Below, piece after piece: positions 1-9,089 of a DNA stretch of 64,000 nucleotides. The DNA comes from Eubacteriales bacterium (GTDB lineage Bacteria > Bacillota > Clostridia > Oscillospirales > CAG-272): the NCBI GenBank assembly GCA_045577415.1, contig JAZNII010000052.1:992-64991 (forward strand), in the 5' to 3' direction. The translations under genes were made by a program, and so were the position numbers. The notes under the pieces are model-generated. The model ran no database searches. It worked only from the letters and a program-made list of their open reading frames with translations, and had not been told where the DNA came from. Numbering within the stretch: position 1 is the stretch's first letter; each line of letters starts with the position of its first letter.

Positions 1-134
1 TCATCATCAAAAATCGTTGAACCAAAATCAGATGAATTATTACCGATGTTTCCTATATCAGTACAAGAGATAACAAAACCAATAACAGAAACAATCACTA
101 ATAAAACTATAAAATACGGAAAAATCTTTTTCAT
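1..134 (-). CDS. putative lipoprotein, N-terminal part only (gene runs off the left edge)
   Basis: ATG at 134 has a GAGGTG RBS 8 nt upstream. Translation MKKIFPYFIVLLVIVSVIGFVISCTD.. is a signal peptide with a lipobox-like VISC. Confidence 0.5.
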   Translation of the reverse strand, partial: MKKIFPYFIVLLVIVSVIGFVISCTDIGNIGNNSSDFGSTIFDD

Positions 135-165
135 GCTTATTGCACCTCATAAAAATGTTTTCTAT

Positions 166-194
166 ATTATAACACATTTTTATTTAGCAATCAA
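166..194 (-). promoter_or_regulatory. sigma-A type promoter for the left-edge lipoprotein gene
   Basis: On the minus strand TTGATT (194-189), a 17-nt spacer, then TATAAT (171-166) preceded by TGt. Confidence 0.45.
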
Positions 195-197
195 TAA

Positions 198-1055
198 TTA
201 ATTATAAAGAACAGCTCTATAATTAGCTTCATAGGAATTAACAAGAACTATGCAGAATTCTTCTGCGCCTTCAGGAATTTCAATGTCACGAATCCAGAAA
301 TCGCCTTCTTTATACGTGTCATCATTATAAGTCCATTCGTAGTTCATATTGTTGCCCTTTGCATCGAAGAACTGAATAATAGTAGTTACAGAAGCTTCGT
401 TAACAGGAACCCAAACTCTCAAAAAATCATAATTCGAAACCTTCTGAATAGCGGTTACGGATACATTATCTTGAATTACAAAAGTTTCCTTGTTGTTGCT
501 GTAATAACAACCAGCCTTGTCAACTTCTACAGAAACTTCCTGTGAGGTAAAATTCTGTTCTTTGTTAACAGAAATCTTGTACTTGCCAGCGATTCCAGCT
601 ACTTCGTAGAACTTGATCGCGTAATCTTCGATAACATGACCGTCCTCGTCCTTAGGAGCTTCGGGAGTGATCACAATTCTGCAATACTTTGCAAAACGGT
701 GGTTATCACCCTTAACGTATACGCCGTCGGTCTGGCTGTTGATCTTGTCGGTCTTGTCGATGAACTGCTTGTTAGCATCGTAATAGTACACTTGATATGT
801 ACCGATTGTTTCGAAATCGGGCTCGATCTCAAGACCCTGGCACTCGATCAGATCCTTGGTATAGATCGACTGATCGGACTCGATATAGAATCCGAGATTG
901 TTCAGAGCTCCGCGCTTGAACGCGATTGACGAAATTGTTTTCTTTTCTTCCTTTGCGATCGCGCTGATCCCGGCTATTGCGCCGACACCCAGCACTACTA
1001 CAAGCGTGATGATCAATACATTCTTCCACGGAATGTTTCGGAAAAATCTTTTCAT
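198..1055 (-). CDS. hypothetical membrane-anchored protein (single N-terminal TM, extracytoplasmic body)
   Basis: 285-aa ORF with a GAGAGG RBS. The N-terminus has a hydrophobic helix VLIITLVVVLGVGAIAGISAIA. I recognise no family. Confidence 0.55.
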   Translation of the reverse strand: MKRFFRNIPWKNVLIITLVVVLGVGAIAGISAIAKEEKKTISSIAFKRGALNNLGFYIESDQSIYTKDLIECQGLEIEPDFETIGTYQVYYYDANKQFIDKTDKINSQTDGVYVKGDNHRFAKYCRIVITPEAPKDEDGHVIEDYAIKFYEVAGIAGKYKISVNKEQNFTSQEVSVEVDKAGCYYSNNKETFVIQDNVSVTAIQKVSNYDFLRVWVPVNEASVTTIIQFFDAKGNNMNYEWTYNDDTYKEGDFWIRDIEIPEGAEEFCIVLVNSYEANYRAVLYN

Positions 1056-1090
1056 GAATTTTTAACCTCTCTTTTTTTATAAAAATTTAT

Positions 1091-1123
1091 AGGCAGAGCA
1101 TCCCGATTCGGAACACTCTGCCT
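1091..1123 (-). terminator. putative intrinsic terminator after the Rep module
   Basis: AGGCAGAG...CTCTGCCT forms an 8-bp stem, followed on the minus strand by ATAAATTTTTAT. The U-tract is interrupted, so the call is only moderate. Confidence 0.4.
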
Positions 1124-1127
1124 TGGT

Positions 1128-1271
1128 TCACTTGATTGTTATTTTGCCGTTTGAAAAAATGATCTCATTTTTACACCGGACACATTTTAGCTGAAGGTAA
1201 CGTAACTTCTTATCCTCGTCAGCTACAAAGGCAAGAAGCTTGTTGCAGCAGGGGCAACGTAATTCTTTCAA
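1128..1271 (-). CDS. small Com-like zinc-ribbon protein (47 codons, below the ORF-track cutoff)
   Basis: My own translation is (TTG)KELRCPCCNKLLAFVADEDKKLRYLQLKCVRCKNEIIFSNGKITIK*. The pattern RCPxCNKLL...KCxRCK resembles the phage Mu Com zinc ribbon. The start is uncertain (TTG 1271 or GTG 1277) and the RBS is weak. Confidence 0.4.
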   Translation of the reverse strand: MKELRCPCCNKLLAFVADEDKKLRYLQLKCVRCKNEIIFSNGKITIK

Positions 1272-1299
1272 AAACACTAATTGGTTCAAAAAATCACCC

Positions 1300-1575
1300 T
1301 TACTGTTTATTATTGGGATGTTCGTTCAGAGCGAACTTGGCGTTCTCAATAAACTTGACCGCCTGAACGAAGCCGCTGAAGTCAACGGACACATCGAGAA
1401 TATCACCGTACTGGGGTACTGCACCCTCAAGCTGATCAGGAGAGATCCAAAGCTCTCTAACAGCGAACTTGCTACCGATTGTATAAACACACTGACAAAC
1501 TACGCTATCATAGGGTTTACCGGTTTTCTTGCCAATTCCTGAACGTCTTTCTGCACTCATTACGTAAACTTTCAT
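1300..1575 (-). CDS. hypothetical 91-aa protein translationally coupled to Rep
   Basis: Its ATG overlaps the Rep stop codon (ATGA overlap at 1572-1575). Its position and size match small accessory or ssDNA-binding proteins of ssDNA replicons, but I recognise no family. Confidence 0.5.
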   Translation of the reverse strand: MKVYVMSAERRSGIGKKTGKPYDSVVCQCVYTIGSKFAVRELWISPDQLEGAVPQYGDILDVSVDFSGFVQAVKFIENAKFALNEHPNNKQ

Positions 1576-3164
1576 TTTTCTTTCTCACTTTCTTTTATTA
1601 ATTCATTTTCTTTTTTCAACTTTTTAATCTCTTTTGTCAATGATCGATATTGCCGTTCTTTTCTTACTTTAATATCACGATAACACGGCGGCTCTATAAC
1701 CGGAACTTCTCCGGTATTGGGATCTGGAGCGAAGCCGTAAAAATCATTGTCATTTAACGTGCATAGCACATCAGAAACGTCTTCCAAGAACGAATTGTCC
1801 TTATAACCGTTATTTTTGAGTATTGACATTGATGCGACCGTAGTGCATACGCGCCGCTTGGTCTTTTCAACGTCAGCATGGTGTTCGTGCTCACGCCAGA
1901 GGTCAACAATACATTTTTCGTATTCCTCAATATAGCACTCATTAATTCTGCGCCAGAAATAACAAAATCGTTCTTCTTCTGTGCCTTTCTTCTCCACGAA
2001 GCACAAAGAAGTTGACGTTAAATAGTTGCAGATCTCACTACGTAAATTTAAGATCGAGAAGATCCTAAACAAAGGCAAATCGCCTTTTTGATAAAAGCCT
2101 TTAAAAACTCCGTCTTCAAAATATGCTTTTTGATATACGTCAATAAAATTGTCGATCGAAGAATAAAACTTACGTTTAGTCTGATATTCCACATTCATTA
2201 TCAGAGTGACTGGGGGAAGGTATTTATCTACCTTTTCCCGGAGCTCGTCCGTATTGTCTGATTTTATGTAACAACTCTGCCGAACATCCGAAAGCTCTTT
2301 TTTAATTTCATCATCATAACCGTGCTCCAGGTACCAATCGATGCGACCGACAAGAAGACCGGTAACGTAGCTTTTCATCTCATAAGCCCTGGTATAAACA
2401 TAATGATCGTATGAATTAATGAGCTTGTCATTATACCACTTGTCAATGAAAAATACCTTATAGTTTTTTTCAATGACCTCGCGCGACTTGTTGTAAATTC
2501 TTACAAAAATATCGTTGCTCTTACGGTGACCGAATGAAAGATAATCAATTTCGATTTTCTTTCCGATGTCACCGACCTTGTGATATGTGCGAAGCTTGGT
2601 CTTGAGCTTTTTAATCAAAAGCCCATCGTTAAAAAATTTATACGGATTTTGAATCAGGTTAGTATGAAAAGCGTAGTCAATACGGTTTTCCTTAACTTCA
2701 TTGACCTTGAGGCTGAAAACATCAAGAAGATTTTCTACAAAGCTGAAAGATCTGCAGACCACCTGGCTTGTCCCGACTTGAACCAAAAAACGAGAACGTA
2801 GTTGTACCACTATACGTGGTGTGAGCGAATTTGGAAGAAAAGATGATATAAAAACATCAAACTCCTCATCCTGGCGTAAACAATATTCGTAATGAACAAA
2901 GCGTGTAGTTTCAAAATTAAGTCCAAAGAACTCGACGTTCTTGGAAGGTGACGTTACTTTCAGAGATCTGCAAAATTTGAGCTCTTTAAGTAAAGCCTCG
3001 ATCCCAGGAGGACAATCATTAGAATCGTCTAATATTGAAACCGTGTAATATAACGTATCTACATGAGCGCACACCTTCTCTCTACTCAAATTAAAATAAC
3101 GGTCTTGTTCTTCCGGGGAAAACTCCCCGAAAATCGGAGACGCTTTTATTTCTTTCGGTATCAT
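1572..3164 (-). CDS. Rep_trans (pT181 RepC/RepD-like) rolling-circle replication initiator or non-canonical relaxase
   Basis: Several motifs align with those I recall from pT181 RepC. RIDYAFH matches RLDLAFDF. DYLSFGHRKSNDIFVRIYNKSRE matches KYFGVRDSNRFIRIYNKKQE, which contains the active-site Tyr. MNVEYQTKRK matches WRVEIELKR. The protein also has a long C-terminal extension ending in a Lys/Glu-rich tail. Confidence 0.7.
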   Translation of the reverse strand: MIPKEIKASPIFGEFSPEEQDRYFNLSREKVCAHVDTLYYTVSILDDSNDCPPGIEALLKELKFCRSLKVTSPSKNVEFFGLNFETTRFVHYEYCLRQDEEFDVFISSFLPNSLTPRIVVQLRSRFLVQVGTSQVVCRSFSFVENLLDVFSLKVNEVKENRIDYAFHTNLIQNPYKFFNDGLLIKKLKTKLRTYHKVGDIGKKIEIDYLSFGHRKSNDIFVRIYNKSREVIEKNYKVFFIDKWYNDKLINSYDHYVYTRAYEMKSYVTGLLVGRIDWYLEHGYDDEIKKELSDVRQSCYIKSDNTDELREKVDKYLPPVTLIMNVEYQTKRKFYSSIDNFIDVYQKAYFEDGVFKGFYQKGDLPLFRIFSILNLRSEICNYLTSTSLCFVEKKGTEEERFCYFWRRINECYIEEYEKCIVDLWREHEHHADVEKTKRRVCTTVASMSILKNNGYKDNSFLEDVSDVLCTLNDNDFYGFAPDPNTGEVPVIEPPCYRDIKVRKERQYRSLTKEIKKLKKENELIKESEKEK

Positions 3165-3294
3165 AAAAAGCTATCTCCTTTTGAAGAATTTATTCATAAA
3201 AGCTGTTTGGGGAAATAGGCATTTGCCCAAACGACTTTTTATGTCAAAAAGTTAATGAATATAAGGGAAACCACGCAAAAATAACAAATTATGC

Positions 3295-3328
3295 AGGGGA
3301 CGTATTACGTATTACAATTTCGTCCCCT
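3295..3328. other. origin-like hairpin (candidate nick-site or dso structure)
   Basis: AGGGGACG (3295-3302) pairs with CGTCCCCT (3321-3328). The 18-nt loop TATTACGTATTACAATTT contains tandem GTATTAC GTATTAC repeats. Confidence 0.3.
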
Positions 3329-3344
3329 CAACGGTTTTTCGCGC

Positions 3345-3375
3345 TTTTTTTGACCGTGAATTCACGGTCAAAAAA
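3345..3375. repeat. perfect palindrome TTTTTTGACCGTGAATTCACGGTCAAAAAA
   Basis: A 30-bp perfect inverted repeat centred on GAATTC lies between the divergent rep and sngA-like genes. It could be a bidirectional terminator-like hairpin or a protein-binding or origin element. Confidence 0.6.
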
Positions 3376-3448
3376 GCTAAAAAATCGCTTGAAATTGTTA
3401 TCAATAGAATTGTACATTAAAAATTCGGCAAATTTGTTCTTTTCCCTA

Positions 3449-3477
3449 TTTACAAGCTATATTTTTTGTGGTATAAT
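3449..3477 (+). promoter_or_regulatory. sigma-A promoter of the three-gene TerB/ATPase/helicase operon
   Basis: TTTACA (3449-3454), a 17-nt spacer, then TATAAT (3472-3477) with an extended TGg. An AAAGGAGAGG RBS precedes the ATG at 3515. Confidence 0.6.
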
Positions 3478-3514
3478 AATATATTACAGAAAACTATGAA
3501 AAGGAGAGGTAAAA

Positions 3515-5302
3515 ATGTCTGAAAACGATAAAAATGACCGTCAAGATCTTGATTTTTGGAATTTGGATAAATATATAAAAAAACGTCCCTCTCCTGCTCC
3601 CGTAAGGCAGTTTTCAAAGAACGCTACCGAAGCGGTAACGATCGAGACACAGGGCAGTTCTCCCAAGGTGTCTGTCAATACCGCTAACGACAGCTCTCAT
3701 TTCTCCGATAGCAGGCTTTCCGTCAAGAGAGAAGCTGATACCGATAGCACGATAACACGCTTTATCCCCCCTCACAAGGACCCTGCATTTGCCAAGAAGT
3801 ACGTTATCGTTGAATATTTCCCCGAAAATCCATTGATAAAAAGCGTCAGGGTATGCTCCGAAAAGCCCGGAGAAAAGGTTTTCGTTGACACCAATCTTTT
3901 TATAAGAGAAAGGCGCGCCCTTCTGAACAGAAAGGCGGCGGAGTCTCCCTACGTCCCCTATTATTCATACTCTCCTCGCTACTCCCAGATGAGCCGCGCT
4001 CAGCTAAGCTATTATCTTTGGTGGCGAGAGAACACACAGAACGGAATTTTTCTTAAAGCCGACGAGTCCTATATAATCCTTTACGCGTACGAGCTTGCGG
4101 CGACGGGAGAGGGCGAGGATAAAGAGGCGGCGCTTGGTATGCTCTGTTCTCTTTTGCAGAACTACACCGATCGAGACATCAACGCCGTGTACCGCTTAAT
4201 GATAAGAGACCTTATCTGCGATTTCTGCCTCGTTCACGGAATTCCATCTCCCACTCACAAGCTTGGTGGCCTCGGCAATCAGCTTTTGTCGGGCGCGTTT
4301 CTGCCCGAATTCTTCATTGATCTGTCCGACCGTAACCGTTCAAGCGTTCTTGAAATGGGAATTGCTTCGATATCAATGTACGATTACAGAAGAAGCAAAT
4401 TCTATTCCGACGAAACAAGCAAGCTTTTCAAAAAGGCGATGAGCGGCGCTGTTGCCGCAATATTTTCCGATGACGCGGCGTTTAAAGCAGTCATGTCCTT
4501 TACCGACGGCATTTACGGTTGTGTCACCGCCGAGCGCCGTCCCTTTGCGAGAATGATAAATATCGTCAACAAAAGCGTAAAGCTTGAGATCACTTATTAC
4601 CAGCTTTCGAATATTCAGTCAGCAGTGACCGACGCAATGCGCTACTCCGAGAACAAGCTCCGCGAGTATATGGGTATCAAGAATAAGCTTCATATTATGT
4701 CGATAAACCCCCAAGTCAAAGCTGCTCTTGACGCTTATTTTTCCGAAAACTATCCCGCTATGCCCATAGTGGACAGACGGCGCAAGGCTAATGCCAACTC
4801 TGAACCCGTAGTTAATGAATACGACAAATTCTACGACGTTCCCAAGGCGGAAATATCTCCCGAACACGCTTTGGAGATAGAACGTGACTCTTGGAGTACC
4901 ACAAAAATATTGACCGAGGCGTTTTCGACCGAAGCCGACGACATTACGGAGGAAAGCACGTCTCTGAACGCTCTTCAGCTTATTATAGAACCAATCGGAG
5001 AGCCTGTGCCTCAAAAAACGGAAACAACCGTTTCCCACCTGCCTGCGACACAGCAATTGCAAATCAGTGGCGGTCTTTTGACACAGATAAAGGGAGAAAT
5101 CGGAGAAGTTGCCGATTTTATTGAGCTTTGTAAGTCGCCTACGCCCACGGAGCAACGCAGATTTGCTGCGTCACACGGCTTGTCGGTTGACGAGATAGCC
5201 GATAGCATAAACGAATGCGCCGCGAATGTTTTCGGAGATATTATCCTTGAAGACGTAGGCGGAGCGTACCGAATTATTGAAGATTATATTGACCAATTCT
5301 AA
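3515..5302 (+). CDS. sngA: TerB-N / TerB-C domain protein (Shango SngA-like)
   Basis: The central motif VPYYSYSPRYSQMSRAQLSYYLWWRENTQNGIFLKADESYIILYAYELA matches what I recall of TerB N-terminal domain proteins. The C-terminus (..SVDEIADSINECAANVFGDIILEDVGGAYRIIEDY) is TerB-C-like. It is the first gene of the operon. Confidence 0.7.
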   Translation: MSENDKNDRQDLDFWNLDKYIKKRPSPAPVRQFSKNATEAVTIETQGSSPKVSVNTANDSSHFSDSRLSVKREADTDSTITRFIPPHKDPAFAKKYVIVEYFPENPLIKSVRVCSEKPGEKVFVDTNLFIRERRALLNRKAAESPYVPYYSYSPRYSQMSRAQLSYYLWWRENTQNGIFLKADESYIILYAYELAATGEGEDKEAALGMLCSLLQNYTDRDINAVYRLMIRDLICDFCLVHGIPSPTHKLGGLGNQLLSGAFLPEFFIDLSDRNRSSVLEMGIASISMYDYRRSKFYSDETSKLFKKAMSGAVAAIFSDDAAFKAVMSFTDGIYGCVTAERRPFARMINIVNKSVKLEITYYQLSNIQSAVTDAMRYSENKLREYMGIKNKLHIMSINPQVKAALDAYFSENYPAMPIVDRRRKANANSEPVVNEYDKFYDVPKAEISPEHALEIERDSWSTTKILTEAFSTEADDITEESTSLNALQLIIEPIGEPVPQKTETTVSHLPATQQLQISGGLLTQIKGEIGEVADFIELCKSPTPTEQRRFAASHGLSVDEIADSINECAANVFGDIILEDVGGAYRIIEDYIDQF

Positions 5303-5316
5303 ATTTGGAGATCATT

Positions 5317-6723
5317 ATGAACGAAAATATGCAGAATAATATGCCACAAGTCCCTCGCCGCATCCTTTCTTCCCTGCTTTCAAGTATTTCCGCAGGCGTA
5401 GTGCCGAGGGCAGGCGCGCCATATATCGCCATCGGACGCAAGGACGAGATACAGGCGTTTCTGTCCGACCTTGAGGAGATAAATGAGGGCGGCGGCGCAA
5501 TGCGCTTTCTTATCGGTCGCTACGGAAGCGGAAAGAGCTTTCTTATCCAGCTTATACGCGGCTACTCCCTTGAACGCGATTTTCTCACCGCCGACTGTGA
5601 TCTTTCTCCCGAAAGAAAGCTGAGCGGCAGCGGAAACAGCGCGATCGCAACCTACCGCGAGCTTATGAAAAATCTCGCATCCAAGTCATCCCCCGACGGC
5701 GGCGCTCTGCCTAAGATCATCTCACGTTGGATTGGAAAAATACGCGGCGACCTGATTTCTGAGGATATTTCTCCCGACGATGAAAAATTCGAGCGCGAGC
5801 TTCAAAAAAGAATATACGCCGAGCTTTCTGAGCTTGAATTTTTAGTGGGCGGATTTGATTTTTCTCGTGTGATCCTTGAATATTACAAGGCAAGCGTATC
5901 AGACGGCGAGGAAGCCACCGCTAAAATGAGCGCTTGTCTGCGTTGGCTCCGCGGAGAGTATTCCACCAAGACCGAAGCGAAAACCGGACTTGGATTTTCG
6001 GTATCGGTCATTATAAACGATGACAACTGGTACGATTTTCTCAAGCTTTGGGCGGTTCTCTCCAAGAAAATGGGTTATCGCGGTCTGGTAGTCTTTATCG
6101 ACGAGTGCGTCAACCTTTATAAGATCCCGCACCGCGTCAGCCGCGAGAACAACTACGAAAAGATACTTTCAATGTTCAACGACACCTTACAGGGTCGCGC
6201 GCCGGGACTTGATATAATCTTTGGCGGTACTCCTCAGTTTTTAGAGGACACGAGACGCGGACTTTTCAGCTACGAGGCGCTTCGCTCCCGTCTTTGCGAC
6301 AGTAGATTTGCCCTTGACGGATTCAAAAACCTTATAGGTCCCGTAATACGATTGCGCCGACTCACCGACGACGAGCTTTTCGCTCTTATTCAGCGCGTGA
6401 CGGTGCTTTACTCACAGTTCTATCAGTGGGATTGCCGCGTCACAAACGAGGACAGATTGAAATTCCTCAATATTTGTCTCTCCCGCGCGGGCGCTGACAG
6501 TATGATAACACCTCGCGAGATGCTCCGCGACTATATGACCGTCCTCAACATACTGATGCAGAACCCCGAGGCAAGCCTTGACGACGTTGTGGGCAGTCAC
6601 GTAACGCTGAAAACCGCAAACGCCGATGATGATCTTGAACCCGAGATTATTCCAACTCAAAAAAGTGAGCAAAGCGGCGGATCGGCACCTAAAAAATTTA
6701 CGGCAAACGATATTGAATTTTAA
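5317..6723 (+). CDS. sngB: DUF2791/BrxD-like P-loop ATPase (Shango SngB-like)
   Basis: Walker A is GRYGSGKS and Walker B is GLVVFIDE. The N-terminal region (GVVPRAGAPYIAIGRKDE..) is typical of DUF2791-type ATPases. The ATG at 5317 has a GGAGA RBS, and the ORF track begins at TTG 5305. The gap to sngA is 14 nt. Confidence 0.7.
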   Translation: MNENMQNNMPQVPRRILSSLLSSISAGVVPRAGAPYIAIGRKDEIQAFLSDLEEINEGGGAMRFLIGRYGSGKSFLIQLIRGYSLERDFLTADCDLSPERKLSGSGNSAIATYRELMKNLASKSSPDGGALPKIISRWIGKIRGDLISEDISPDDEKFERELQKRIYAELSELEFLVGGFDFSRVILEYYKASVSDGEEATAKMSACLRWLRGEYSTKTEAKTGLGFSVSVIINDDNWYDFLKLWAVLSKKMGYRGLVVFIDECVNLYKIPHRVSRENNYEKILSMFNDTLQGRAPGLDIIFGGTPQFLEDTRRGLFSYEALRSRLCDSRFALDGFKNLIGPVIRLRRLTDDELFALIQRVTVLYSQFYQWDCRVTNEDRLKFLNICLSRAGADSMITPREMLRDYMTVLNILMQNPEASLDDVVGSHVTLKTANADDDLEPEIIPTQKSEQSGGSAPKKFTANDIEF

Positions 6724-6743
6724 AAAATACACAAGGAGGATTT

Positions 6744-9089
6744 ATGACAGACGCGGATCGCATTTTTGAACGCTTTCCCGACTTTATAAGGGAATATATA
6801 TACTCCCATTCATGGGAGTCTCTGCGCGCCGTTCAGTTGGCGGCGGCAAAGACTATATTTGACACTGACAATAATCTGCTTCTGACCTCCTCCACCGCAA
6901 GCGGAAAGACCGAGGCGGCGTTCTTCCCCATACTCTCGCTTCTCCACGAGGACAAGCCGTCAAGCATCGGCGTGCTTTATATCGCGCCCCTTAAAAGCCT
7001 TATCAACGACCAATTTGAGCGACTTGAGGAGGTTCTTGATATGACGGGCGTTAAGGTCACCCACTGGCACGGTGATGTTGCGGCATCCCACAAGCGAAAG
7101 CTACTTGAAAAGCCCGAGGGAATTTTGCAGATAACGCCCGAGTCCCTTGAAGCGATGCTGATCAATCGCTCAAATGACATTCCAAGGCTTTTCGGAGACC
7201 TTCGGTTCGTTGTCATCGACGAGATACACACCTTGACAGGTACCGACCGAGGGAATCAGATAATCTGTCAGCTCTCGCGAATTGCTCACCTCATCGGTTT
7301 CCACCCGCGCCGTATTGCGCTTTCAGCTACCATAGGCGACCCGTCTCTTGCCGCCGAATGGCTGAACGCTGACACGGTCAGAGATATTGACGTTCCCTCC
7401 TTTGCCGAGGAAAAGATAAAATGGAGACTTGGACTTGAGCATTTCTATATCCAAAATCCCGAGCTTGAAAAGCAGAAAAAGGAGCAGGAAAAGGCAAAGA
7501 TAGCTGACAAGCTTTCCTCAAACGAGGTGGTTTTCGCCGAAAAGGTCGAGGACGCCTCCAATGGTGAAGGCTATAACGAAAAAAATGATGCTTATGATAG
7601 GATTGGCGGCACAAAGCCCTATTACATCGATCCGGGTTACGAATACGCGTATGATTGCGTCAAGGATAAAAAATCCTTGGTTTTCTCCAACTCACGTGAG
7701 GAGACCGAATATGTCTGCGCCACGCTCCGTCAGATAGCGAAGCTGCGCGGCGATGAGGACAGCCACATTCTCATTCACCACGGCAATCTTTCGGCGTCTC
7801 TCCGCGAGGAAGCCGAGATGAAGATGCGTGACGACGAGGAGTTTGCCGTCACCTGCGCCACCGTCACTATGGAGCTTGGCATCGATATTGGTCAGCTTGA
7901 GAGAGTTATGCAGATCGAAGCTCCAAACAGTGTTTCAAGCTTTTTGCAACGCTTGGGCAGATCGGGCAGACGAAGTCAGACACCCGAGATGATGATGGTC
8001 TTCCGTGAGGAGGAGGCGCTTCCAAACACCCCGCTTCCCCAGCTTATTCCGTGGGAACTTCTGCGAGGAATTGCCATTATTCAGCTCTACATTGAGGAAC
8101 GCTTCATTGAGCCGCCCTCACGCAAAAAAATGCCCTTTAGTCTGCTGTTCCACCAAACTCTTTCGATGCTTGCGTCCTGCGGCGAGCTTACCCCTGCAAG
8201 GCTTGCACAGAGAGTTCTTTCCCTGCCTCCTTTTCAGTTTGTCAGCCGCGAAGATTACAAGGCTCTGATCGTTTCGATGCTCAATAATGAATTTATTGAA
8301 ATGACCGAGGAAAAGGGTCTTATCGTGGGACTTGTGGGTGAAAGACTTCTCAAAAGCTTCAAATTTTACGCGGTATTCAAGGATAGTGAAGATTTCACGG
8401 TGCGTTGCGGCTCGGACGAGATTGGAACTATCACTACCCCTCCCCCCGTTGGCGACCGCTTCGCTTTGGCGGGTCGTGTCTGGGAGGTTGAGGAACTTGA
8501 CGTCACAAGAAAGCTTATTTACGTCAAAAAGGTTGACGGAAAAATGGAGGTGTCGTGGCCGGGTGACTTTGGCGAGATACACACCAAAATTTTGCGCCGT
8601 ATGAAGCAGATACTTGAGGAGGACACAGTTTATCCCTATCTCAAGGAAAACGCCGTAAAACGCTTAAATCAAGCTCGTGCGACGGCGAGAAACACAGGCA
8701 TGCTTGACCACTCTCTCGTTCACCTCGGCGGTTACTCATGGTGTCTCTTTCCTTGGCTCGGAACTCGCTCATTCCGCACTCTCCGCAAGTATATAAAGAA
8801 AAACGCCGCGGCAAACGGCATCAGCGGCATAGAGTTTGAGGGATGCTATTACATCACCTTCAAGCTGGAAAAGGTGTCCGATATTCAGTTTATTTCACGC
8901 TTGCTTGACGGAATTGAGCGCGAGGGCATTGTCTGCGAGGCTCTTGTTGAAAACAGCGAGATCCCCGTATTTGAAAAATATGACAACTATATTCCCCACG
9001 ACCTGCTCCGCAAGGCTTACGCCGCAGATAAGCTCCGCGCAGACGAGGCCGAGGAACAGATAAGAGCGGTATTTGAAGAATTTGAATAA
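6744..9089 (+). CDS. sngC: Lhr-like DEAD/DEAH-box SF2 helicase with a long C-terminal extension (Shango SngC-like)
   Basis: Helicase motifs are present: I TASGKTEAAF, II VVIDEIH, III SAT, VI QRLGRSGRR. An AAGGAGGA RBS precedes the start. The gap from the ATPase gene is 20 nt. Confidence 0.75.
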   Translation: MTDADRIFERFPDFIREYIYSHSWESLRAVQLAAAKTIFDTDNNLLLTSSTASGKTEAAFFPILSLLHEDKPSSIGVLYIAPLKSLINDQFERLEEVLDMTGVKVTHWHGDVAASHKRKLLEKPEGILQITPESLEAMLINRSNDIPRLFGDLRFVVIDEIHTLTGTDRGNQIICQLSRIAHLIGFHPRRIALSATIGDPSLAAEWLNADTVRDIDVPSFAEEKIKWRLGLEHFYIQNPELEKQKKEQEKAKIADKLSSNEVVFAEKVEDASNGEGYNEKNDAYDRIGGTKPYYIDPGYEYAYDCVKDKKSLVFSNSREETEYVCATLRQIAKLRGDEDSHILIHHGNLSASLREEAEMKMRDDEEFAVTCATVTMELGIDIGQLERVMQIEAPNSVSSFLQRLGRSGRRSQTPEMMMVFREEEALPNTPLPQLIPWELLRGIAIIQLYIEERFIEPPSRKKMPFSLLFHQTLSMLASCGELTPARLAQRVLSLPPFQFVSREDYKALIVSMLNNEFIEMTEEKGLIVGLVGERLLKSFKFYAVFKDSEDFTVRCGSDEIGTITTPPPVGDRFALAGRVWEVEELDVTRKLIYVKKVDGKMEVSWPGDFGEIHTKILRRMKQILEEDTVYPYLKENAVKRLNQARATARNTGMLDHSLVHLGGYSWCLFPWLGTRSFRTLRKYIKKNAAANGISGIEFEGCYYITFKLEKVSDIQFISRLLDGIEREGIVCEALVENSEIPVFEKYDNYIPHDLLRKAYAADKLRADEAEEQIRAVFEEFE

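Follow-up and report, generated by a model that had tools for sequence, protein, structure and literature searches.

The stretch analysed here (hereafter the window) comprises 64,000 nucleotides (nt) of contig JAZNII010000052.1 from a Eubacteriales bacterium, and the subject of this report is the replication module at its left end. The whole module lies on the minus strand, as does every open reading frame (ORF) between positions 1 and 3164, and it is built around the gene for a 530-residue replication protein (Rep). A 91-residue ORF, a 53-residue zinc-ribbon ORF and a terminator-like hairpin, which appears to close this operon, follow rep, and the gene for a 285-residue protein beyond the hairpin is the first of the membrane and structural part of the element. 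On the other side of rep, a leader of ~250 nt with three inverted repeats (IR-A, IR-B and IR-C) extends to the terminus. Details of the features are presented in Table 1. An earlier first-pass annotation of this DNA had described the 91-residue ORF as translationally coupled to rep and followed by a small zinc-ribbon ORF and a hairpin, and each of these was located. All four complete ORFs of the element within the window are intact. Positions 1 to ~3420 are probably the replication end of an integrated, filamentous-phage-like (inovirus-like) element of ~10 kb, one of a lineage of such elements in gut Clostridia.

Table 1. Features of the replication module and its terminus (window coordinates)
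Feature	Position	Strand	Details
rep, 530 aa	1572..3164	-	ORF calling; AGGAGA ribosome-binding site ahead of start
91-aa OB-fold-like ORF (OB, oligonucleotide/oligosaccharide-binding)	1300..1575	-	ATG overlapping the rep TGA as ATGA, 1572-1575
53-aa zinc-ribbon ORF, CxxC...CxxC	1128..1289	-	TTG start
Terminator-like hairpin	1091..1123	-	15 pairs, 8 of them G-C; then T-rich tail ATAAATTTTT
285-aa protein with N-terminal transmembrane anchor	198..1055	-	44-47% identity to the same-position gene of L002-L006 and L019
Start of lipoprotein-like ORF (MKKIFPYFIVLLVIVSVIGFVISC...)	1..134	-	Runs past the left window end
IR-C	3198..3239		19-nt arms, 84% complementary: AAAAGCTGTTTGGGGAAAT/ATTTGCCCAAACGACTTTT
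IR-B, candidate plus-strand origin hairpin	3295..3328	-	Stem GGGGACG/CGTCCCC; TGTAATACG in loop
IR-A	3346..3375		Perfect 15+15 nt palindrome TTTTTTGACCGTGAA/TTCACGGTCAAAAAA; imperfect extension 3328-3392
Rep-proximal element terminus	3398..3423	-	Invariant 20-mer ATGTACAATTCTATTGATAA at 3398-3417; host DNA rightward from ~3420-3423

A search of 5.8 billion proteins returned homologues of Rep in at least 417 clusters. None of the 120 homologues listed has a precomputed Pfam domain, and a source name, 'hypothetical protein', is attached to just one of them. The number of homologues and the substitution rates given below mark rep as a genuine gene. The first-pass annotation had assigned Rep to the pT181/Rep_trans family of rolling-circle initiators from three motifs, and all three are present in the 530-residue protein (RIDYAFH at residues 161-167, DYLSFGHRKSNDIFVRIYNKSRE at 206-228 and VEYQTKRK at 325-332). 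Profile search did not recover Rep_trans with the window protein, formally an outcome that the first-pass annotation had named as counting against its assignment: the protein does not reach the curated threshold of PF02486 and gives no Pfam match at E ≤ 1. However, sub-threshold matches to PF02486 were obtained for 17 of 41 family members (none above 17.4 bits, where the gathering score is 29.6), and these fall without exception on profile positions 58-99, which correspond to the catalytic motif. No Pfam family other than PF02486 was matched by more than three of the 41 members. The matches to Protein Data Bank (PDB) sequences that phmmer and hmmsearch returned for Rep, such as interleukin-4 (IL-4) and major histocompatibility complex (MHC) proteins, are noise and were set aside.

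The assignment to Rep_trans is upheld by the predicted fold and by the active-site residues. An AlphaFold2 model of Rep was generated from 24 homologues, with a mean predicted local distance difference test (pLDDT) score of 83.6, and was compared with the PDB using Foldseek. The list was headed by the only Rep_trans enzymes with solved structures, namely RepSTK1 (4CIJ, E = 2.4e-8) and RepDE (4CWE, 9.7e-7, and 4CWC, 1.2e-6), all with a probability of 1.0. The structural alignments with RepSTK1 and RepDE have only ~12% sequence identity. TATA-binding proteins (TBPs) rank next, as expected because the fold of the Rep_trans enzymes is itself TBP-like (PMC13595969, citing the RepDE/RepSTK1 structure paper). 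The Rep model thus has the TBP-like catalytic fold found in RepDE and RepSTK1. Among the predicted viral structures of BFVD, Rep proteins of uncultured Inoviridae sp. come out on top, the best of them at 6.7e-10.

For the active site, the sequence of RepC was read from the pT181 record, where the catalytic Tyr191 lies within FIRIYNKKQER. Alignment of profiles with hhalign places residues 207-230 of the family profile (DYLSFGHRKSNDIFVRIYNKSREV) on RepC 175-197 with 52% identity and E = 1.2e-4, so that R222-I-Y224-N-K226 pairs with R189-I-Y191-N-K193; with the broader alignment A5, the catalytic motif alone was aligned with RepC, at a weaker E of 1.4e-3. Y224 falls on Tyr191 of RepC and is therefore the counterpart of the catalytic tyrosine, whose presence the earlier annotation had made a requirement of its assignment. 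In RepDE, Y191 is catalytic, R189 and K193 serve religation, and D46, D142 and E214 are metal ligands, each on a separate strand (PMC4797284). Counterparts of these three ligands in Rep are D36 (VDTL/FDAM), D163 (RID/RLD) and E326 (VEYQTKR/VEIELKR), a mapping made by motif order and inspection and not by three-dimensional superposition. D36, D163, R222, Y224, K226 and E326 are invariant in the 41 family members, down to 30% identity. In the model, the three carboxylates lie on predicted strands 31-44, 154-168 and 323-330 and the six residues together span four strands. Both hallmarks of the RepDE site, a tyrosine flanked by Arg and Lys and three carboxylate ligands on separate β-strands, are thus seen in Rep.

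Rep is longer than the plasmid initiators, and the earlier annotation had attributed the difference to a C-terminal extension of about 200 residues. An extension is present, but it accounts for only ~100 residues in comparison to RepC; a further ~85 residues (roughly 238-315) form a helical insertion between the tyrosine motif and the VEYQTKRK strand, where RepC has a gap of ~15 residues, and the N-terminus is longer by ~15 residues. The failure of the PF02486 hidden Markov model on the window protein is plausibly due to the ~85-residue insertion. The C-terminal region contains the invariant residues W404, D462, D472 and N473 and an invariant motif, EDxSDxLxxLNDND. On a more speculative reading, the helical insertion and a conserved domain at the C-terminus would set Rep apart as a new subfamily of the Rep_trans superfamily.

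The leader between rep and the terminus is strongly structured. When folded as single-stranded DNA (ssDNA), its 241 nt reach -42.9 kcal/mol as compared to -21.4 ± 3.1 kcal/mol for shuffled sequences (z = -6.98). An Rfam search gave sub-threshold noise only, on the palindrome. The region 3295-3375 had earlier been singled out for a test of nicking. Two separate inverted repeats lie there (3295-3328 and 3346-3375), with a third at 3198-3239.

IR-B is formed by an 8-bp stem and an 18-nt loop. Of the 54 loci checked, 42 have the loop sequence TGTAATACG in the region upstream of rep, at a distance of ~80-150 nt; in some of the other 12 the upstream region is truncated, and variants of TGTAATACG were not followed up. 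The stem, in contrast to the loop, differs by clade (GGGGACG/CGTCCCC, GGGGCG/CGCCCC or CCACG/CGTGG). Across 26 distinct sequences, five of the seven pairs are changed on both sides, and 82% of the cells are paired; in controls with a slid partner this figure does not exceed 54%. In the same sequences, 28 compensatory cells were counted against 10.6 ± 2.5 after shuffling (none of 500 shuffles was as high), a number to be read as few evolutionary events and not as 28 because the stem changes are at the level of clades. IR-B also resembles IR-II of pT181 (...CTCTAATAGCCGG), where the nick falls between T and A in TCT/AATA. Since an invariant loop on a covarying stem lies beside rep, IR-B is likely the nick-site hairpin, as in the pT181 family, in which inverted complementary repeat II (ICRII) holds the nick at its tip (PMC4797284; PMC5775427).

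The IR-B loop of the window contains a 7-nt tandem duplication of GTAATAC (3309-3315 and 3302-3308) which most relatives do not have. An independent tandem duplication of 10 nt (GTAATACGTG twice) is present in the origin loop of locus L046, ~145 nt upstream of rep. The left edges of the two duplications are at the same point of the loop, and when rotation of the repeat unit is allowed, both are compatible with a start from T/GTAATA to TGT/AATA. Because termination extends ~10 nt past the nick (PMC4797284), the start of the duplications gives a hint that rolling-circle initiation and termination could take place at this point, and the duplications themselves may have been left behind when rolling-circle replication terminated aberrantly at the nick.

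The other two repeats are also maintained among the relatives. IR-A varies in length and sequence with its pairing kept (compensatory GTGA/TCAC vs GCGC/GCGC), whereas L020 and L008 have a far longer hairpin in its place; by analogy with the order of hairpins in the intergenic region of Ff, IR-A may act as a minus-strand origin or as a packaging-type signal. IR-C is located between promoter-like hexamers and the ribosome-binding site of rep and is kept in six of six aligned relatives, which makes it a candidate Rep-binding or operator site. A Rep homologue of 39% identity with the TGTAATACG hairpin was also seen in L038, a contig of 4058 nt in a Methanobacteriaceae metagenome-assembled genome (MAG), probably as a binning artefact.

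The N-terminal third of the 91-residue protein, and this third only, matches the PHROG families of RstB (7e-5) and of an ssDNA-binding protein (1.7e-4). Its AlphaFold2 model (pLDDT 89) has the topology β1-β2-β3-α-β4-β5, which is the order of an OB fold, and OB folds of RPA, PriB, HIN-200 and SSB head the Foldseek list, weakly, with all E-values at or above 0.046. Natural fusions of this protein to the C-terminus of Rep of 613-619 residues were identified in clusters P0078 and P0080 and at locus L024 (9804-11642), and an internal MKV... start is kept at the junction. The ATGA overlap and the natural fusions suggest that Rep and the OB protein act together. The 91-residue protein is probably an ssDNA-binding partner of Rep, analogous to gVp or RstB. 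It has no similarity to the 106-residue candidate from L012. The 53-residue zinc-ribbon protein matches PHROG families of a translational regulator (9.4e-8) and of gpCom (5.2e-6), with weak Pfam zinc-ribbon matches, and L002-L007 and L020 have its gene conserved in the corresponding place; judged by these matches, it is a putative Com-like translational regulator.

In the mechanism that we propose, Rep, presumably as a dimer, would bind the leader and nick the plus strand, which has the sense of rep, within the hairpin loop of 3295-3328, at or beside TGT/AATACG. Y224 would form the 5'-phosphotyrosine link, whereas D36, D163 and E326 would hold a divalent metal and R222 and K226 would serve religation. 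A host helicase of the PcrA/UvrD type, presumably recruited to the nick, and Pol III would then displace the plus strand, which the 91-residue OB-fold protein would coat. Once the hairpin has been regenerated, a further round of cleavage and joining there would release the circle.

The boundary of the element is sharp. Nucleotide homology to five related loci, with Rep identities of 66-90%, ends abruptly at 3420-3423, among them L001 (86% nucleotide identity), L003, L019 and L020, and the metagenomic contigs L003 and L006 begin exactly at this boundary. Just inside it, the 20-mer ATGTACAATTCTATTGATAA is identical in all close relatives; it has a single occurrence per related locus and a single one in the window, where 0.01 would be expected by chance. 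The GC content is 38% in positions 1-3500 as compared to 46.5% in the whole window. The host flanks differ among L001, L002, L008, L019, L020 and the window: the relatives are flanked by ABC permeases, by Band_7/trypsin genes or by GdpP-L9-DnaB, and the window by a TerB_N/TerB_C gene. A copy with 90% identity to the window Rep exists in another context. The sharp boundary, the drop in GC content and the differing contexts indicate that the element is integrated and mobile. The earlier proposal of an integrated mobile element continuing to the left of the window is borne out by the same observations and by the ORF that runs off the left end, and since the relatives occupy different chromosomal contexts, rep is not a core gene kept at one locus in all related genomes. 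We have high confidence in two conclusions: that Rep belongs to the Rep_trans superfamily, as a very divergent member which the current Pfam model does not cover, and that it is part of a mobile element.

The suggestion that the element might be decaying, which accompanied that proposal, is not supported. The ratio of nonsynonymous to synonymous substitution rates (dN/dS) against the relatives is 0.08-0.11 for rep and 0.08-0.18 for the window genes overall, and purifying selection of this kind (~0.1) together with the intact ORFs argues that the element is not decaying. A domesticated or decaying remnant, outside any functional mobile element, would be in keeping with an element cut by the window end (probably the contig end), with the 7-nt duplication in the nick-site loop, rare among relatives, and with the fact that no integrase was seen. 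This explanation is nonetheless very improbable in view of the intact reading frames, the dN/dS of ~0.1, the 90%-identical copy in a different context and the conserved origin and terminus sequences.

Candidate sequences for the integration site were also considered. A dif-like reading of the terminus was unconvincing by eye. The 15-mer TTTTTGTGGTATAAT, shared by the host flank and the far end of relatives, was rejected as an attachment (att) site as it is an extended -10 promoter consensus. No tRNA genes were found near the junction. To the right of the junction, on the plus strand at 3515-9089, lies a cluster which is defence-type in appearance and is preceded by a near-consensus promoter (3449-3477). 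It encodes a TerB_N/TerB_C protein of 595 residues, a BrxC/BrxD-family ATPase of 472 residues (PF10923, E = 3e-150) and a DEAD/Helicase_C protein of 781 residues.

The kind of element was assessed from its relatives. A further 43 loci were collected from genome and virus collections (named here by L numbers), and clustering of their ORFs revealed two architectures. The first is found in Blautia, Ruminococcus and Holdemanella and on IMG/VR contigs, with Rep proteins of 30-34% identity. It begins with a divergent helix-turn-helix repressor, small proteins and a pIII-like protein of ~500 residues that bears a signal peptide and is anchored at its C-terminus, and continues with a 78-residue protein with two transmembrane (TM) segments, a 204-residue protein that combines a Walker A motif at the N-terminus with a single TM segment, Rep and a tyrosine integrase. 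Inovirus prophages are laid out in this way. The ATPase of L012 exceeds the Pfam threshold for Zot (23.0 bits, against 20.3), and Zot-like proteins accompany distant members of the Rep family in L012, the f4 group and pCd1_4.

The second architecture is that of the window clade (L002/L003, L008, L019, L020 and others). The origin, Rep, the OB protein, the zinc ribbon and TM proteins come first, followed by a secreted, anchored protein of 620-722 residues, an ATPase of 692-766 residues and small basic proteins. In L002/L003, L008, L019 and L020 these modules are unidirectional and ~10 kb in length. The ATPase combines a Walker A motif with 4-5 TM segments at its N-terminus, and apart from the 620-722-residue proteins with signal peptide and C-terminal TM segment, the relatives encode hydrophobic ORFs of 30-36 residues. 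Rep together with a probable ssDNA-binding protein on one strand of a unit of ~5-12 kb, as seen in filamentous phages, is thus found here. Some of the relatives are IMG/VR viral contigs of 6-12 kb, while among GenBank phages no Rep homologue was found. In L039 and L040 this ATPase occupies the exact position of Zot, in the order secreted pIII-like protein, ATPase, Rep, integrase. An hhalign match of the 692-766-residue ATPase to Zot-like neighbours is confined to the P-loop, and its identification as Zot was not accepted.

The same ATPase could be read in another way. The module might encode the relaxase and replicase of an integrative mobilisable element (IME) or an integrative conjugative element (ICE), similar to NicK of ICEBs1 or Orf20 of Tn916, with the ATPase as coupling protein and the secreted proteins as adhesins. 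Conjugative transposons do use Rep_trans relaxases (PMC4797284), the ATPase of the relatives has the layout of a coupling protein (N-terminal TM segments and a P-loop) with single weak matches to T2SSE and TrwB_AAD_bind, and the large proteins with signal peptide and C-terminal anchor would suit such a role. However, no VirB4 or FtsK/TraG family of Pfam was found in the called genes of L001-L011, in the L003 module or in scans of the ATPase family, so the ~10-kb modules are without a VirB4-like ATPase. Type IV secretion system (T4SS) or coupling protein genes, by which an ICE or IME would be recognised, were thus missing, and the gene set is small and unidirectional. Moreover, the same Rep and origin hairpin are found in Zot-encoding circles of 6.8-9 kb and in inovirus-type prophages with an integrase, and the position of the ATPase in L039 and L040 speaks for the place of Zot. 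We therefore consider a conjugative or mobilisable element unlikely.

Rep of this family is also found on small circular replicons. The circular C. difficile pCd1_4 (L055, NZ_CP037847.1; 6830 bp) carries a Rep of the window family. L042, a contig of 9203 nt in a Bacillota MAG, has a 127-nt terminal repeat indicating a circle of ~9.08 kb, and encodes Rep and a Zot-like ATPase. L041 (3622 nt, Holdemania MAG) has a 55-nt terminal direct repeat indicating a circle of ~3.57 kb, on which only a handful of tiny ORFs accompany Rep; this contig could represent a minimal plasmid, or else a satellite of the phage-like elements. The occurrence of Rep on such circles is good indirect evidence that Rep drives autonomous replication. 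With respect to annotation, pCd1_4 and also NZ_ON887052.1 are deposited as non-mobilisable plasmids with hypothetical proteins only, and their content is that of an inovirus replicative form, with Rep, small TM ORFs, a 421-residue pIII-like protein and an 89-residue protein with two TM segments. A 209-residue Zot-like protein with a Walker A motif spans the origin of these records and is missing from the gene table.

These circles raise the question of whether the element is an integrated rolling-circle plasmid or satellite-like replicon without its own transfer apparatus, the membrane genes being cargo. L041 with only Rep and a few tiny ORFs and the deposition of pCd1_4 as a plasmid agree with such a replicon, and a rolling-circle plasmid acting as an inovirus satellite has been described (bioRxiv 10.1101/2023.11.28.569023). 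In the window clade, however, the order Rep, OB, zinc ribbon, TM, secreted protein and ATPase is kept across Rep identities of 35-76% and in different flanks, which argues that the membrane genes belong to the element. A replicon with mere cargo thus has only a slim chance of being correct.

Of the three settings that the first-pass annotation had named for Rep_trans proteins (plasmids, filamentous phages of Gram-positive bacteria and relaxases of mobilisable elements), a filamentous-phage origin fits best. We favour a phage-like nature of the element with moderate confidence, lowered as its own subclade lacks a recognisable Zot; filamentous particles would then be its expected product.

Several results weigh against this interpretation, and they concern both Rep and the element. 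The window Rep had no match at E ≤ 1 in Pfam, NCBIfam or PHROGs, and RepD was not recovered when PDB sequences were searched with its sequence (phmmer) and with the family profile (hmmsearch). The OB-fold assignment of the 91-residue protein depends on weak Foldseek E-values. No Zot/pI protein is recognisable in the closest relatives (L002/L003, L008, L019 and L020), so a pI/Zot ATPase, the gene for which would lie outside the window in any case, could not be assigned to them, and the 692-766-residue ATPase belongs to no specific family of Pfam, PHROG or PDB. The proteins of these relatives do not include the acidic-hydrophobic-basic pattern of a coat protein, and a typical major coat protein was not seen. 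No integrase was found for the subclade of the window or its closest relatives, and when the far end of related elements was searched for direct repeats of the att type and for another copy of the terminal 20-mer, nothing longer than expected by chance turned up. Finally, the window proteins map to a single NCBI contig, 66,127 bp in length, with at most ~2.1 kb beyond the window, and the relatives have 7-8 kb more of the module downstream of the part equivalent to the window, which indicates that this copy breaks off where the contig stops.

The far end of the elements could be inspected in the relatives. A protein of 281-332 residues is encoded there on the opposite strand (L003 9929-10927, minus strand; L008 20688-21461, minus strand). 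It has N-terminal zinc ribbons and, by eye, a nuclease-like C-terminal motif, with no Pfam match, and the 5' part of its gene is conserved between elements in different host contexts. This protein may take part in regulation or in integration. A conserved non-coding block near the far end (L003 9557-9610, L008 20359-20412, L020 19612-19696) is a consensus extended -10 promoter (TTGACT-N17-TGGTATAAT) directed back into the element.

Starting from the favoured interpretation of an inovirus-like element, a more specific possibility can be put forward tentatively, namely that the window clade represents an undescribed lineage of ssDNA elements replicated by Rep_trans in Oscillospiraceae/Eubacteriales, in which pI/Zot has been replaced by the polytopic P-loop ATPase of ~750 residues and which has no evident integrase. 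If true, such elements would escape inovirus detectors that are based on pI, and a different export and assembly machine as well as a different route of integration (host Xer-type or Rep-mediated) would be possible. The inoviruses known from gut Clostridia (PMC10061712) and the cryptic inoviruses of Roux et al. (2019) were found through pI/Zot profiles, and in the latter survey a protein qualified only if its closest domain was Zot and it had 1-2 TM domains (PMC6813254). An ATPase with 4-5 TM segments and no similarity to Zot, as in the type present in the window, would be missed by these criteria.

It is already established that filamentous phages and integrated elements use Rep_trans initiators, and the present result leaves this picture intact. 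What is new here is an unannotated and structurally elaborated family in an expected role. For at least 417 clusters of proteins, a role as rolling-circle initiators can now be proposed, together with a catalytic tyrosine, a metal site and a nick hairpin, all three predicted, which provides a handle on widespread small mobile elements of gut Clostridia that current profile libraries miss. Related elements are carried by cultured strains, among them Blautia hominis KB1, Blautia difficilis M29, Ruminococcus sp. AF41-9 and AM22-13 and, with pCd1_4, C. difficile Cd1. The analysis also flags a subgroup with release machinery other than the canonical Zot/pI.

Compared with known systems, Rep has in common with RepC, RepD and RepDE of the pT181 family and with RepSTK1 the TBP-like fold, the R-I-Y-N-K motif and the three acidic ligands. 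The likeness extends to the origin, where a candidate nick-site hairpin is found beside further inverted repeats and T-AATA is followed by the stem (compare CTCT/AATAGCCGG in pT181). The differences are in size (314 residues in pT181 RepC as compared to 530 in the window Rep, with its helical insertion and C-terminal region), in the position of the origin, which is inside rep in the pT181 family and upstream of rep here, and in the carrier, as the pT181 family is present on resistance plasmids whereas the window Rep is part of a chromosomal phage-like element. NicK of ICEBs1 and Orf20 of Tn916 belong to the same superfamily and are likewise located in an integrated element in the chromosome; the relatives studied here differ from them in having no T4SS or recognisable coupling-protein genes nearby and in an OB partner that is coupled or fused to Rep.

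The gene order also resembles that of filamentous phages. In Rep_trans-encoding inoviruses, in gII-gV of Ff and in rstA-rstB of CTXphi, the gene for the replication protein is followed by that of a small protein of the ssDNA-binding type, as is the case here, where the second protein has the PHROG match to RstB. In the intergenic region of Ff, a long hairpin, the nick hairpin and rep follow one another, and the same order is found in the leader of the window. Gram-positive inoviruses are mostly smaller than the ~10-11 kb of this element, and the window subclade differs from inoviruses in having no detectable Zot/pI or typical coat protein, whereas the distant relatives of Rep adjoin Zot-like ATPases, pIII-like proteins and two-TM proteins, with or without an integrase. 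Rep_trans enzymes are reported to be the commonest rolling-circle enzymes of Tubulavirales (PMC13595969). Inoviruses are known from gut Clostridia, namely Enterocloster/Hungatella (PMC10061712), and with these and the cryptic inoviruses of Roux et al. (2019) the present element shares the host group and, as integrated prophages of 6.5-16 kb (PMC10061712; PMC6813254), a comparable form.

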